A DNA stretch of 19,465 bases from the NCBI GenBank assembly GCA_030141605.1, contig JAQGDQ010002486.1, positions 1 through 19,465 of the forward strand, in the 5' to 3' direction. The first letter of the stretch is position 1, and each line of letters opens with the position of its first letter. This DNA is from Tubiluchus corallicola (lineage: Eukaryota > Animalia > Priapulida). The translations under genes were made by a program, and so were the position numbers. Shown here piece by piece: positions 1-19,421 of this stretch. The notes under the pieces were generated by a model. The model searched no databases. It was not told where the DNA came from and was given only the letters and a program-made list of their open reading frames with translations.

Positions 1-597
1 GGCATCTCCATAGTCTATGTCTTCAATTAAAGATATTTCATAATCTTCTACCTCTCCACTTGAAGCTAATCCTATAGGGACATTACACTCATCTGTTGAG
101 GTACAATACCTAAATCTTGCATAAGTTACTCTTGGGGTTTGTGATGAAGGTATTTCAATATTTATTGTTCTTGAACCTCCAAAGATTAACTCATCATCTA
201 TTACTTGCTCACCTGTATCAAATCTACCATTTCCATTAAAATCTATCCAAGCACTTAAAACTCCTCCATTACCTGATACGCTTATTTCTAGTGGAATTGT
301 TTCCCCTATTAAAAGTTTTTGGCCTTGTAATGACACTCCACCTAAGTTTACTCCATCGTCTCCGTCGTCATCTGTGGCATTTTCACTTTCATCTATTCCG
401 TTAGAAAACCCATCTGTATCATCTGTTATTCTTTCTCCTAAAAAATTGACACCATCATTAACGTGTCTTGGACCATCATCTGCTAATAATGTGCTATAAC
501 TTTCTGGTGCATCTCCAAAATCATCTCCTAAAATTATTTGTCCTATAAAAAATACACATAGCATTAATATTAGATAAATAATTTTTTTGCTTTTCAC
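1..597 (-). CDS. Secreted GEVED-domain (CshA-like, DxGDAP...GEVED) adhesin-like surface protein, 5' part only; runs off the window edge
   Basis: Absent from the ORF track because no stop codon lies in the window. GTG at 597 is preceded by AAGGAG-N6. It translates as MKSKKIIYLILMLCVFFIGQIILG (signal-peptide-like), then DDFGDAPESYSTLLADDGPRH...AWIDFNGNGRFDTGEQV...TYARFRY...SSGEVEDYEI, and a second unit starts DYGDA at the edge. Confidence 0.85.
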   Translation of the reverse strand, partial: MKSKKIIYLILMLCVFFIGQIILGDDFGDAPESYSTLLADDGPRHVNDGVNFLGERITDDTDGFSNGIDESENATDDDGDDGVNLGGVSLQGQKLLIGETIPLEISVSGNGGVLSAWIDFNGNGRFDTGEQVIDDELIFGGSRTINIEIPSSQTPRVTYARFRYCTSTDECNVPIGLASSGEVEDYEISLIEDIDYGDA

Positions 598-828
598 ATT
601 AATCTCCTTAAATATAAAATTTTTTTTATTAATAGGTATACCCATTTTTGCCTCCTTGAAAATACAAAAGCTATATAATTTTCTAAATCTTTAATAAAAA
701 CCTGCTTAAATAATATTTATAAGTGTAAATTCAATCCCTCAATTTATAATATGTTATAAAGCTTTGAGAGATAGCGTAAAATTTAGAGTTACAATTAATT
801 GAATATTATTCATTTGAATATAGGGATA

Positions 829-14722: not shown

Positions 14723-15817
14723 ATTTTATTCCCACTATGTGGGTATAGTCTCGTTCGGGTCCTTCTGGGCTCGCAAACCATTGCGGGTCGTTTTATTCCC
14801 ACTATGTGGGTATAGTCTCGAACAAGTCTTAGATTTGCTTACCTTTCTCTAGTTGAGTTTTATTCCCACTATGTGGGTATAGTCTCTTTTTTTAATTTTT
14901 TTTACTTATAAAATACAAAATTGTTTTATTCCCACTATGTGGGTATAGTCTCCCCGCAAAAATTCAAGCAATATTAGATGAAAATATTGTTTTATTCCCA
15001 CTATGTGGGTATAGTCTCTAGAAAAATAATAGACTTAATGTATAAAAATAATCTGTTTTATTCCCACTATGTGGGTATAGTCTCTTAATGGAAAAAAACA
15101 AGGTAAATGGAAATATTATACGTTTTATTCCCACTATGTGGGTATAGTCTCTAAAAGAGAAGATGAGTGGAAATATTACCATGACAAGTTTTATTCCCAC
15201 TATGTGGGTATAGTCTCATAATGAAGGTGATGAACTATACACCTGGTTTTCCTTGTTTTATTCCCACTATGTGGGTATAGTCTCTAGAATTGACAGAAAA
15301 TTATAAAGATGGACAAAGAGAGTTTTATTCCCACTATGTGGGTATAGTCTCCTCTCGATGGAAAAATAAATCTTGAGACAATAGAAAGTTTTATTCCCAC
15401 TATGTGGGTATAGTCTCCAATGAAAATGGGCAATTAAGAAAAATAATAAACTAGTTTTATTCCCACTATGTGGGTATAGTCTCACAAGAAACAGGTCAAT
15501 GGAAATATTACCATGACAAGTTTTATTCCCACTATGTGGGTATAGTCTCAAGATAAAAGAAAAAGGGATATTGACAACTTCAATAGTTTTATTCCCACTA
15601 TGTGGGTATAGTCTCTATAAATAAATCCATCTGGGATAAAGTAGAGGAGAACGGTTTTATTCCCACTATGTGGGTATAGTCTCTATGATGAAGATGGACA
15701 ATTATGGAAAATAGGAAATTAGTTTTATTCCCACTATGTGGGTATAGTCTCAAAGATAATAGAAAACTATGTAAATGGTAAAGAAGAGTTTTATTCCCAC
15801 TATGTGGGTATAGTCTC
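14723..15817 (-). CRISPR. CRISPR array: 17 direct repeats (30 nt) and 16 spacers (36-38 nt), type VI-C
   Basis: The repeat on + is GTTTTATTCCCACTATGTGGGTATAGTCTC, which in the transcribed orientation is GAGACTATACCCACATAGTGGGAATAAAAC (hairpin CCCAC-ATA-GTGGG, 3' AAAAC). Repeats start at 14723, 14790, 14857, 14923, 14989, 15055, 15122, 15188, 15255, 15322, 15388, 15454, 15520, 15586, 15654, 15722 and 15788. Only the leftmost copy deviates (G>A at 14723), which marks the trailer end and supports minus-strand transcription. Confidence 0.99.
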
Positions 15818-15945
15818 ACGTATATATTTTATATACTTAATTTATTGCTTTTAAAGTGCTAATATTATCGATCTATACAATAAATGCTTTTTTTCAAATA
15901 GAAGTCTATATTTTATAGTGCATCAATTTTTGCATTATTATACAT
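15818..15945 (-). promoter_or_regulatory. CRISPR leader (AT-rich), with a perfect TATAAT at 15942-15937 pointing into the array
   Basis: This non-coding AT-rich segment adjoins the undegenerate end of the array on the cas13c side. No good -35 box is visible. Confidence 0.6.
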
Positions 15946-15949
15946 TGAC

Positions 15950-15977
15950 AAAGTAGGTACCCTTAAAGGGTAACTTT
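15950..15977 (-). terminator. Hairpin immediately after the small-peptide stop codon
   Basis: The minus strand reads AAAGT-TACCCT-TTA-AGGGTA-(CCT)-ACTTT. The U tail is short, so terminator function is uncertain. Confidence 0.35.
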
Positions 15978-16060
15978 TAGATAGCCAAAAGATACATTAA
16001 ATCAACTATAAGTTGGCATATTCGGCATATCATAGATATAACCATAGTTATATCCTTCAT
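15977..16060 (-). CDS. Putative 27-aa hydrophobic peptide MKDITMVISMICRICQLIVDLMYLLAI (type I toxin-like, or a Cas13c accessory micropeptide)
   Basis: A near-perfect anti-SD match (TAAGGAGATGAT) precedes AATT-ATG at 16060, and TAA is at 15977-15979. There is an upstream promoter and a downstream hairpin. The ORF is below the ORF-track length cutoff. Confidence 0.55.
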   Translation of the reverse strand: MKDITMVISMICRICQLIVDLMYLLAI

Positions 16061-16199: not shown

Positions 16200-19100
16200 C
16201 TATTTATTATGGGATCCATAAAATACTTTTTTACTTTTTATGATCCCTGTATAGTCTTCTAAAATATTATCTTTTTTATCTACAAGTTTAAATGTGTTTT
16301 TCTCTATTTTATAGCTTATATCGTTAGGATTTTCTATTTCTTTTTCATTTTTCAATATTTTTTCTTTTATAAACTTTTCAATTTCTCTTTTTTCATGAAT
16401 AATATACGTTTCTTTTACATTTTTATTATTTATTACACTTAATTCTATGCTCCTTTTTTCTCCACAAGTTAACTCTATTACAAGTTTATCCTTTACTTTT
16501 TGTATTATATATTTTTTATATATCCCTAGTAGTTGTGAGCTTTCTCTTTTTATAACTCCCATTATATTATCTTCATAGTTTGATGCATTTTTTAATAGTT
16601 CTCTCATTTGTTTCTTTTTCCCTTTCTCAATAAAAACCTCTATTTCAGATATTTGCTTATGTATATTATACCCAATATTTCCAGTATCTTTTATTTTTAT
16701 AAACTCATTATATTTTTCTAATATTTTTGGAAGGTCGTTTTTATTTAATCCATATCTCTTCAAAGTCTCTTCTTCTTTTCTATATTTTTTTTCTTTATTT
16801 GATATTCTTTCTTTATTTTTTTCTTCAAATTCTTTTACAAGATCTTCTTTATGAGTTGAGTTTAAATTAAAAATAAATTTTTTCTTTTTCATATAATAAT
16901 CATTGATAAAATTCATTCCAAGATTTATACTACTTAGTTCATTTTTGATACTTTGAGTAATACAGTCTATTTTCTCACTTAAAGATAAGTTATTACTAAA
17001 TGGATAATTTAAAAATAAGTCTTGATAGTCTAGATGAGCTATACTATTTCTAATTTTTCTTAAACAAATATTATTTATTTTTGTATTTTCTATTAGTTTT
17101 CCAAAGTTATATTCTTTAGATAATTTATTATTTTCTAACACATCCATTATAGTTTTTATATTTTTATTTTTTTCTAAATATTTAAAAAGAGCATGAATCT
17201 CTATATCATTTGTTAATTTGAAAATATCTTGATAATATTTTATAAGGGGAATAATAATATTTTTGTCAAAAATTTTCTTTTCTTTTATACCAGAGTATTC
17301 TCTTACCATAACTTCTGAAGTATTTATACCAATGTTTTTATATATTTTGTTAAAATCATCTTGTAAGTTTCTAAGTTCTGTTAATTCATAAGAAATAATT
17401 TCAAATTTTTTAGAATTTTTTTCAAACAGCCTCAAGTTATGAAAAAAAGTATCTTTATTATTAGAGCTCTCAGAAACAAAATCTACATTTTTCATATCAT
17501 AATAATTTTTCTTTACAAAACCTAAAAAATCCCCTCTTAAATCTACAGGAATTAAGAGATACATTACAGTATAAAACTTAATCAAATTATTTGATCTATC
17601 TTTATTTAAAAAATATGATTGTTCTTTTTTTATAGTTTTTATATTTTTATATAAATCACCTAAATTAAAGTTACTTTCTTCTTTACTTATTTTAGCTCCT
17701 AGATATTCTTCTCTTTTACTTTTATATTTTGATATTTCTTCTAGCTTTGTTGTATCAAATTTTTCTTTAAATTCCTTAATACTAAAATCAAATTCTTTAT
17801 ATAAAAACCCATATGCCATTTGAAGCTTGTATTTTAATCTATACTTTGAGTTTAGCTTCGTTATTTCTTCCATTTTACCTTTGATATTTAAAAGACTTTC
17901 ATTAATACTAGTTATCTCTTTTTTATTTCTATTTACTTTTCTTTCAATTAGTTTACTTTGTTTATCCACTAATTCTTTTCTTTTATTATATAGCTTTTTA
18001 TAATTTTCACAATTATGTATATCCCATACATATGGTATATTTTCTTCGCCAATAAGCCTTTCTAATCTTTTCATTTCCTTTAGCTCTGCATTCATTGATT
18101 TTTTAGTTTTTTCTTCTATTTTTTTCTCTTTAATTTCTCCAGTTTTTATTGATTCTTCAAGAAAACTTTTTCTACTTGTAAAATTTTCTTTCATTAATGT
18201 CTTTAGTGCTCTATTTTCTCTTCCATCACTCACAAAGAATGAATTTATAAAATTATTAAAACCATTTTTCCTATTACAAATACTGTGATATAAATCATAT
18301 AATTTTTTTGCCTTTTTATCTTTATCAAGTATTCTTATTTTTGTTTCTTTTTCTAAGTAATTAGTTTTTTCCTCTTCTTTTATATTTTTAAGTTTTGATA
18401 ATTCTTCAAAAATATTTAAATCTAAGAGTTCACTTATTGGAGTTTTTCCATTTTTATATTTTACTTCTACATTTGCATCTGTATCAGTAAGTAAATCCCT
18501 AAAGTATCTATAATTGTAATGCATAAGTTTATGCCTAAAATCAGCAAATAAAGCTACTATTTTTTCCATATCAGCTTTAAAGTTTTCTTTACTAATAAAA
18601 TCTAATTTTTCCTCTACTTCTTTATTTTGCCATTTTTTTTCTTCTACTTTTTTTACATAATTATCTATTTTATTATTATGATTTTCTATAAATTTATGTA
18701 TATAGTCTTCTGATATTTTTTCTGCTAAATTATTGTAAAACTCTTCTCTTTTCTCAGGAGATACATCCTTTATATTTATTTTCCATATTTCTGTTATATT
18801 TTCATATTTTCCACCTTTACCTTTTACTTTTGTACCTGTATCTTTTGTTAAAAAATCATTTATAAAAGCAAAATAAATAAGCATATTTGATCTATATGAT
18901 AAAAATCTTTTTATTTTATATATTTCTCGTGAATCTATTTCCTCTTTTTTACAATCTGCAATTAAAGAGTAATTTTTACATATTTCTTCTCTCAAAAGTA
19001 CTCTTTCTGTATAAGATTCTTCTCTTCTTCTTTCTTTTTCTCCCTCTTTATCTTTTTCCAATATATCTTTTACATACACTTCTACCAATATGTCTTCTTT

Positions 19101-19421
19101 ATTAGTTTTTTTATATTCACCGTAAACAATATACTTTCTAGTAATTTCTCCTGTATACTTATCTCTTTTTTCTACTTCAAACCCTTTTTCTGAGCCTTCA
19201 ATTTTTATTGATTTACTTTCAGTGGATATATTTTCTACATCAAAATTAATGTCCCCGCCATCTTTATCTTTATCAAGTTTATCGTGACTAACATTAAAAA
19301 CATCCACCCCTCCTTGCTTTGTATAAAGCACTTTTATTTCCTTTATTTTTTCACTATCAAAGTTTGATATAATAACCCTTACTATAGAGCTTTTATTTGA
19401 TTTTCTATTTTGATTTTTCAT
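16200..19421 (-). CDS. cas13c: Type VI-C CRISPR RNA-guided RNase Cas13c
   Basis: 1073 aa, K/E-rich and adjacent to the array. It has two HEPN RxxxxH motifs, RHKLMH (aa 296-301, nt 18519-18536) and RNSIAH (aa 791-796, nt 17034-17051). Segments I recognise from fusobacterial Cas13c are NKSSIVRVIISN, IYKIKRFLSYRSNML, LLDLNIF, KNGFNNFIN, TKLNSKYRL, RGDFLGFVKKNYYD, FFHNLRLFEKN and INDYYMKK. The RBS is AAGGGGG. Confidence 0.95.
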   Translation of the reverse strand: MKNQNRKSNKSSIVRVIISNFDSEKIKEIKVLYTKQGGVDVFNVSHDKLDKDKDGGDINFDVENISTESKSIKIEGSEKGFEVEKRDKYTGEITRKYIVYGEYKKTNKEDILVEVYVKDILEKDKEGEKERRREESYTERVLLREEICKNYSLIADCKKEEIDSREIYKIKRFLSYRSNMLIYFAFINDFLTKDTGTKVKGKGGKYENITEIWKINIKDVSPEKREEFYNNLAEKISEDYIHKFIENHNNKIDNYVKKVEEKKWQNKEVEEKLDFISKENFKADMEKIVALFADFRHKLMHYNYRYFRDLLTDTDANVEVKYKNGKTPISELLDLNIFEELSKLKNIKEEEKTNYLEKETKIRILDKDKKAKKLYDLYHSICNRKNGFNNFINSFFVSDGRENRALKTLMKENFTSRKSFLEESIKTGEIKEKKIEEKTKKSMNAELKEMKRLERLIGEENIPYVWDIHNCENYKKLYNKRKELVDKQSKLIERKVNRNKKEITSINESLLNIKGKMEEITKLNSKYRLKYKLQMAYGFLYKEFDFSIKEFKEKFDTTKLEEISKYKSKREEYLGAKISKEESNFNLGDLYKNIKTIKKEQSYFLNKDRSNNLIKFYTVMYLLIPVDLRGDFLGFVKKNYYDMKNVDFVSESSNNKDTFFHNLRLFEKNSKKFEIISYELTELRNLQDDFNKIYKNIGINTSEVMVREYSGIKEKKIFDKNIIIPLIKYYQDIFKLTNDIEIHALFKYLEKNKNIKTIMDVLENNKLSKEYNFGKLIENTKINNICLRKIRNSIAHLDYQDLFLNYPFSNNLSLSEKIDCITQSIKNELSSINLGMNFINDYYMKKKKFIFNLNSTHKEDLVKEFEEKNKERISNKEKKYRKEEETLKRYGLNKNDLPKILEKYNEFIKIKDTGNIGYNIHKQISEIEVFIEKGKKKQMRELLKNASNYEDNIMGVIKRESSQLLGIYKKYIIQKVKDKLVIELTCGEKRSIELSVINNKNVKETYIIHEKREIEKFIKEKILKNEKEIENPNDISYKIEKNTFKLVDKKDNILEDYTGIIKSKKVFYGSHNK

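Follow-up and report, generated by a model that had tools for sequence, protein, structure and literature searches.

The stretch of DNA analysed here, called the window throughout (19,465 nt in its whole length), carries a cas13c gene and, adjoining it in the same orientation, a CRISPR array with a repeat of the VI-C type. Cas13c is the least studied of the Cas13 subtypes. The principal features of the locus are the following.

16200..19421, minus strand: cas13c, 1073 aa, matched by NF038193 and called Cas13c by PADLOC
15818..15957, minus strand: AT-rich putative leader, between the gene and the first perfect repeat
14723..15817, minus strand: CRISPR array of 16 spacers between 17 repeats of 30 nt, the trailer repeat at 14723 being degenerate

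The effector and its setting

The effector matches the profile NF038193 with 741.7 bits against a cut-off of 150, and both of its HEPN R-x4-H motifs (R296 and R791) are intact. The proposal of a first-pass annotation of this DNA, namely that a Cas13c array is present, is thus borne out by an intact cas13c beside 17 repeats, and on its sequence the locus is a member of the type VI-C CRISPR-Cas systems. With those of Fusobacterium, Cetobacterium and Tissierella it has in common the profile match, the HEPN pair, a downstream co-oriented array, a 30-nt hairpin repeat and spacers of 36-38 nt, the length found throughout this array. It differs from known type VI-C systems in its effector, at most 47% identical to theirs (47% being the figure for the closest of 88 relatives compared), and in a focus on MORN2 that is seen in 0 of 22 other arrays. 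Two further Cas13c loci, L016 and L017, have repeats of 36 nt as against about 30 nt in the others. Neither cas1 nor cas2 was seen among the 12 long proteins of the window that were scanned; upstream of cas13c the window includes only 44 nt.

The neighbouring genes in the window, which encode ribonucleotide reductase, RsmI, ROK, phosphomannose isomerase (PMI), MatE, chorismate synthase, peptidase M20 and YjeM, lie in low-GC chromosomal DNA. Since the top named relatives of the phosphomannose isomerase are those of Haliovirga (63%) and Psychrilyobacter (60%), and the peptidase shares no more than about 51% identity with any counterpart in 190 Fusobacteriota genomes, the host is likely to be a deep-branching fusobacterial lineage without a close sequenced genome. 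None of 10 proteins of the window was present in the protein collection searched. At positions 1-645 (minus strand) the window holds the start only of a GEVED-domain surface protein, which extends past the window edge.

Orientation of the array

The sole degenerate repeat is the copy most distant from cas13c, and both the repeat type and the layout are common to 19 other Cas13c loci, in which a GAC/GAT...AAC-type repeat runs with the gene and a degenerate copy stands at the far end in 7 of the 19. From the position of the degenerate repeat and the layout of these relatives we infer a leader beginning at 15818, crRNAs transcribed from the minus strand and S16 as the newest spacer. The earlier claim that the array is read from the minus strand, with crRNAs complementary to the mRNA, accordingly finds support in the layout of the array and its 19 relatives. 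A promoter scan of the leader returned 15 sites where 12.2 were expected, a number not above chance. The crRNAs of type VI-C carry the repeat at the 5-prime end, as stated in a review (PMC9569848).

The spacer that would be the oldest, S1 (14753-14789), stands apart from the host and from every other spacer in its GC content of 62% and in forming a hairpin. Between cas13c and the leader there is, in addition, a hydrophobic ORF of 27 aa (15977-16060, minus strand; GRAVY 1.6); its ribosome-binding site lies right against the 3-prime arm of a hairpin of -18 kcal/mol, and a two-way terminator-like site (15958-15972) is found downstream. Comparable short hydrophobic ORFs were seen at 4 of the 19 other Cas13c loci (L012, L020, L022 and L027), all of which have a longer gap between gene and array, of 366-451 nt. 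Type I toxin-antitoxin pairs reportedly sit beside CRISPR arrays of C. difficile and, likened to these, the ORF with its hairpin resembles a type I toxin-antitoxin insertion next to a type VI-C system. An Rfam search gave no credible match.

Seven spacers copied from MORN2 coding sequence

All spacers were scored in six frames against a cyclic profile of 24 columns, derived from 31 MORN2 units in 9 fusobacterial ORFs. The spacers on which the argument turns are listed below, with the plus-strand peptides of six of them.

15085..15121, minus strand: MORN2 spacer S6, score 20.3; peptide NGKKQGKWKYY
15152..15187, minus strand: MORN2 spacer S7, score 11.4; peptide KREDEWKYYHD
15285..15321, minus strand: MORN2 spacer S9, score 13.7; peptide ELTENYKDGQR; the unit repeat-S9-repeat is present in sequencing run X2 too
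15352..15387, minus strand: S10, weak candidate and uncounted, score 7.2 (p 0.008), below the control maximum of 8.5
15418..15453, minus strand: MORN2 spacer S11, score 19.1; peptide NENGQLRKIIN
15484..15519, minus strand: MORN2 spacer S12, score 6.9 (p 0.014), with a 20-nt identity to S7; peptide QETGQWKYYHD
15550..15585, minus strand: S13, phage-type rusA resolvase spacer, mRNA-antisense as are the MORN2 spacers
15684..15721, minus strand: MORN2 spacer S15, score 16.6; 30/32 match in run X3
15752..15787, minus strand: MORN2 spacer S16, leader-proximal, score 15.4; peptide KIIENYVNGKE

The scoring confirmed that seven of the 16 spacers are, as judged from sequence, copies of MORN2 coding sequence, with predicted crRNAs antisense to the mRNA. 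The seven peptides and their coordinates are exactly those first claimed, six of them scoring well above chance (S6, S11, S15, S16, S9 and S7, all with shuffle p<=0.0015) and S12, whose own score lies below the control maximum, being counted because its last 20 nt are shared with S7. That the source is MORN2 is supported by the fit of the profile in one frame and on one strand: in the minus-strand frames 16 of 16 spacers score below 0. Among the controls, a score of 10 or more is reached by 3 of 2106 coding 36-mers of the window, by none of the 173 unique spacers that 19 other Cas13c arrays contain (maximum 8.5) and by none of 14 spacers from 3 further ones (maximum 3.1); these 22 control arrays, with 187 spacers, include several from non-fusobacterial hosts, and two of the loci are the same array. 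S10 had been put forward as a weaker candidate, and so it proved, the codon phase of its leader-side end also being unlike that of the seven. All seven lie on one strand (P 0.008), and they make up 7 of the 11 newest spacers as against 0 of the 5 oldest (hypergeometric 0.029).

The peptides tile the 24-residue unit of the MORN_2 (PF07661) / YwqK family. When the seven spacers are aligned to the 72-nt unit, no single unit accommodates two of them, and by comparison made by hand at least 5 distinct repeat units are involved. In S7 (15152-15187) column 10, where the MORN2 unit normally has Gly, is occupied by Asp, possibly the sign of a unit that is degenerate or has escaped.

A second strain with the same focus

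Four of five sequencing runs, which come from three studies, contain part of the locus. Run X3, from another study than the best-matching run and of a sample kind that is unrecorded, includes 294 nt identical to cas13c and the same repeat, and both of its two visible spacers are new, unlike all 16 of the window. Read by hand, both are again MORN2-like (the G-x-x-x-G-x-W half of the unit) and in the same orientation, and one has 23 nt in common with S12. The same run yields a 46-nt contig free of repeat sequence, which matches S15 at 30/32 positions and continues in frame into the N-G-K of the next unit; since its length exceeds that of the spacers of this array, it is most simply taken as a piece of a MORN2 target gene, chromosomal or mobile. 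Its depth is 8, as compared with 10.8-16.4 for the cas13c and array pieces, contig depth being no measure of copy number. In runs X1, X2, X4 and X5 no spacer-matching contig outside the array was found among those listed, and gaps in these assemblies carry no weight for or against self-targeting. Each run of one sample (sample S1) holds a single array unit only (spacers S8, S9 and S2), which probably results from assembly collapse of parallel spacer paths, and run X4 holds one 98% cas13c piece and no array, from a small share of its reads.

The targeted MORN2 subtype

MORN2 is expanded in fusobacteria, with 115-250 domains per genome reported in active invaders (PMC4222103), and the unit tiled by the spacers is the same 24-residue unit as that of the family at large. 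The targeted subtype is nevertheless a W-rich one that is uncommon in fusobacterial chromosomes. W-K at columns 12-13 is present in 3 of 3 spacers covering these columns as against 3 of 94 chromosomal units; the motif G-x-W-K-Y-Y-H-D has no exact match in 190 Fusobacteriota genomes and, with one mismatch allowed, 7 matches in 6 of the 190. On this evidence the W-rich subtype (G-x-W-K-Y-Y-H) is rare on fusobacterial chromosomes, and the guides therefore do not sample the general expanded fusobacterial MORN2 family. Of the earlier claim, the targeting of MORN2 stands, and the equation of its target with the expanded chromosomal family does not.

The rarity of the subtype bears on the suggestion that Cas13c is aimed at the MORN2 transcripts of its own host, for regulation or conditional dormancy. 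The expansion of the family in fusobacteria, its presence in 5 of 5 relatives tested and the recurrence of the focus in a second strain would all agree with such a role. The subtype, however, is rare on chromosomes, the guides are the newest of the array and, as far as the two visible spacers of X3 show, differ between strains, whereas guides with a regulatory role should be old and conserved, and 0 of the 187 spacers of other Cas13c arrays, fusobacterial hosts included, do the same. Moreover, with both HEPN sites intact seven guides against self mRNA should be costly, and in type VI-B spacers to self mRNA are reported to be under-represented (PMC8092290). We consider this reading improbable.

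The nearest proteins by subtype resemble secreted proteins of cellular origin. When a profile derived from the spacers was run against 1.84 billion proteins, secreted tandem-repeat proteins ranked top; none of the 150 proteins listed from that search has an exact spacer peptide, the best agreeing at 9 of 11-12 residues. These closest relatives are unnamed or of Bacteroidota origin, the one organism name among ten top-subtype proteins looked up being Polaribacter. A word-indexed search for MORN2 proteins gave one match only. According to one report, MORN2 proteins are without a demonstrated function (10.1101/534297).

A further possibility is that the array polices chromosomal cassettes that move horizontally from relatives or neighbours, for example toxin-immunity arrays with W-rich MORN2 genes of the immunity type; a cell that took up and transcribed such a cassette would then go dormant. 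Six fusobacterial genes bear the near-exact motif. Two of these come immediately after an AHH nuclease toxin domain, and another consists of a tandem pair of the same type of protein. YwqK is described as a cognate immunity protein in Bacillus (PMC13648612), and MORN2 genes are reported to cluster with IS elements and to vary between strains (PMC4222103). The best matches of the spacers to these motif-bearing genes, however, reach only 26-28 of 36-37 nt, the capture of seven spacers needs a frequency of exposure that an infectious element would better provide, and S13 is of phage type. Cassette policing is a candidate that we regard as unlikely. At loci L213-L215 of fusobacterial genomes AHH nuclease toxin domains are followed by proteins of about 400 aa whose C-terminal part is a MORN2 region, an arrangement that is apparently one of polymorphic toxin and immunity.

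Phages, plasmids and the search for protospacers

In one genome (G157) two prophages carry a rusA copy that S13 matches in frame at 32/36 positions, and in IMG/VR the match is 30-32/36 in 10 of 10 contigs; a spacer against phage rusA implies that the array does ordinary anti-phage work. For the MORN2 spacers, the search for protospacers gave none in GenBank phages, plasmids, IMG/VR or the 190 Fusobacteriota genomes, the best matches in these genomes being 31/36 to 31/37. Motif scans of IMG/VR returned 0, 0, 12, 23 and 16 loci with a best MORN2-spacer match of at most 29/38, and protein-seeded viral scans for a MORN2 source found nothing.

MORN2 is known from mobile elements of several kinds. 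It occurs in three tandem genes of a Helicobacter prophage and on plasmids of Fusobacterium and Cetobacterium, and it is reported in marine phage satellites (PMC9618062). In phages at large it is rare, being present in 1-3 of 50,697 GenBank phage records. In one fusobacterial prophage lineage (L147, L153 and L163) a MORN2 gene lies between a VRR-NUC resolvase and the terminase. This gene (L147 9238-10645; also in L153 and L163) encodes a signal peptide, is equipped with a ribosome-binding site of its own as well as an extended -10-like box, stands in L147 between the resolvase and a late activator, and is likely to be a moron. In the viral contigs L156 (8789-10750), L121 (4059-6248) and L143 (8896-11076) MORN2 repeats form part of fusion proteins, either with a phage lysozyme or behind an N-terminal domain that by eye is glycosyltransferase-like. 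Phage FNU1, considered as a carrier of YwqK/MORN2, was rejected, as none was annotated or found in the whole record. Neighbourhoods of rusA contain MORN2 in 0 of 10 IMG/VR loci, 0 of 18 genome regions and neither of the G157 prophages, and VRR-NUC loci in 1 of 16, so that S13 may come from a different phage.

Spacer capture and a candidate PAM

The leader-side ends of the seven MORN2 spacers fall at 4 of the 72 possible registers of the unit (S9/S16, S7/S12, S11/S15 and S6), and in every case the end lies at the second position of a codon. The probability of such clustering is 0.0009, or 0.012 if S7 and S12 are merged. In 98 real units the flanks at these registers, read on the crRNA strand, are CCA/CCT, CCA, TTA (55/98) and TCA (51/98), with the consensus at the leader-proximal, crRNA-5-prime side, and in 12 rusA contexts the flank of S13 is CCT in 8 and CTT in 4. 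The four registers would imply a PAM like that of type I-B, of the form CCW/TTA/TCA, a post hoc reading that depends on family-consensus flanks and in which CC is partly built in by the choice of Gly-containing units. A 5-prime YYN toward the leader and spacers of 36-38 nt are traits of type I-B. One of the X3 spacers appears not to fit the PAM. The PAM predicted for type I-B of F. nucleatum is YNW (10.1101/2022.01.21.477265). No protospacer for comparison was found for 173 spacers of other VI-C arrays in 183 loci. Since NGG is only about 1.5 times more frequent in MORN2 DNA than in the genes of the window (0.058 vs 0.038), the density of PAMs does not explain the focus on MORN2.

Registers of this PAM-like kind point to capture from DNA, and primed acquisition by a DNA-targeting system at a single MORN2 locus, self or foreign, could have left the spacers as an inert by-product beside a Cas13c that is silent or does not select. 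Priming by type I-B has been reported to make hotspots in type VI-A arrays, even on the host genome (10.1101/2024.10.25.620265). The seven MORN2 spacers, S13 and the two X3 spacers are, however, all mRNA-antisense, an orientation that elsewhere is reported to arise by selection (PMC8092290, PMC7515739), and the strand bias of priming would mimic it only if the same strand were favoured in both strains. We rate the by-product reading as rather improbable.

Probable repeated immunisation against a mobile element

The array is real and unusual, and immunity is its most likely function, self-regulation an unlikely one. Our preferred reading, to which we give a probability of roughly 0.55, is repeated immunisation against a mobile element, be it phage, plasmid or prophage, that carries MORN2 either as one long gene or as several. 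Of the explanations first offered for the array a mobile element is favoured because the block contains the rusA spacer too, the visible spacers of a second strain are different ones and the candidate PAM points to capture from DNA; what speaks against it is that no MORN2 protospacer was found in the databases searched, that MORN2 is rare in phages and that the proteins nearest in subtype look cellular and secreted.

Under repeated immunisation, a type I-B-like Cas1-Cas2(-Cas4), which we place elsewhere in the cell because cas1 and cas2 were not seen in the window, would capture spacers in trans from double-stranded DNA at YYN PAMs, such PAMs being supplied at fixed registers by the MORN2 codons for conserved Gly, Tyr and Glu. 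Priming, together with the several targets offered by near-identical units, would turn the repeat-rich locus into a hotspot, and selection would retain only those guides that are antisense to an expressed transcript. These guides would switch on the RNase activity of Cas13c, so that infection or lysogeny is aborted, while the array would keep turning over, and another strain should then have different guides to the same family. Even for an element that was 8.5% MORN2, 7 of 16 spacers would arise with a P of only 2e-4, so that extra focusing, through priming, multivalency or strong early expression, has to be assumed.

Several of these steps have been described in other systems. In type VI-B only mRNA-antisense spacers are reported to persist in nature (PMC8092290), and in type III selection is reported to concentrate spacers on a small early region (PMC7515739). 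Like the VI-B system of Flavobacterium columnare (PMC8092290) and the VI-A system of Listeria seeligeri (10.1101/2024.10.25.620265), the present array would combine spacers captured from DNA, a leader-side PAM, hotspots and selection for antisense guides; unlike these two, which as reported draw on type II-C Cas1-Cas2, it has a putative PAM and a spacer length resembling those of type I-B, and its hotspot is a protein-repeat family. With the type III hotspot on the Thermus phage phiFa (PMC7515739) it shares RNA-targeting spacers on a small transcribed region and a strand bias of the kind driven by selection, but that case concerns, as described, a laboratory infection by a known phage with unique genes, and ours a natural array and a repetitive gene family.

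In a literature search that excluded most subscription journals and supplements no description of MORN2-focused CRISPR targeting was found. The first-pass annotation had known of no family-focused targeting by Cas13, and for MORN2 this holds in the literature found; the concentration of spacers on a small transcribed region is, as reported for phiFa (PMC7515739), precedented. Strand bias and hotspots, then, are already known, whereas a natural array focused on one protein-repeat family in two strains was not found in that literature, nor was a VI-C array with a PAM signature resembling that of type I-B.

Implications

If repeated immunisation is the correct reading, there would be a fusobacterial element for which its MORN2 transcripts are an exposed weak spot, and there would be a PAM prediction for the supply of spacers to VI-C arrays without cas1 and cas2, the PAM being type I-B-like where the two published cases are of type II-C. 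A wider and more speculative view, which we hold only tentatively, is that Cas13c serves this deep-branching fusobacterial lineage as a sentinel at the level of a protein family, re-armed through borrowed type I-B adaptation and not directed against one phage. That the target would then be the whole MORN2/YwqK subfamily, be it cassettes of the immunity type or the host's own copies, with the repeats acting as multivalent RNA targets, is an equally tentative, rather unlikely proposition. Were it true, this would be a CRISPR system aimed at a gene family and not at a genome.
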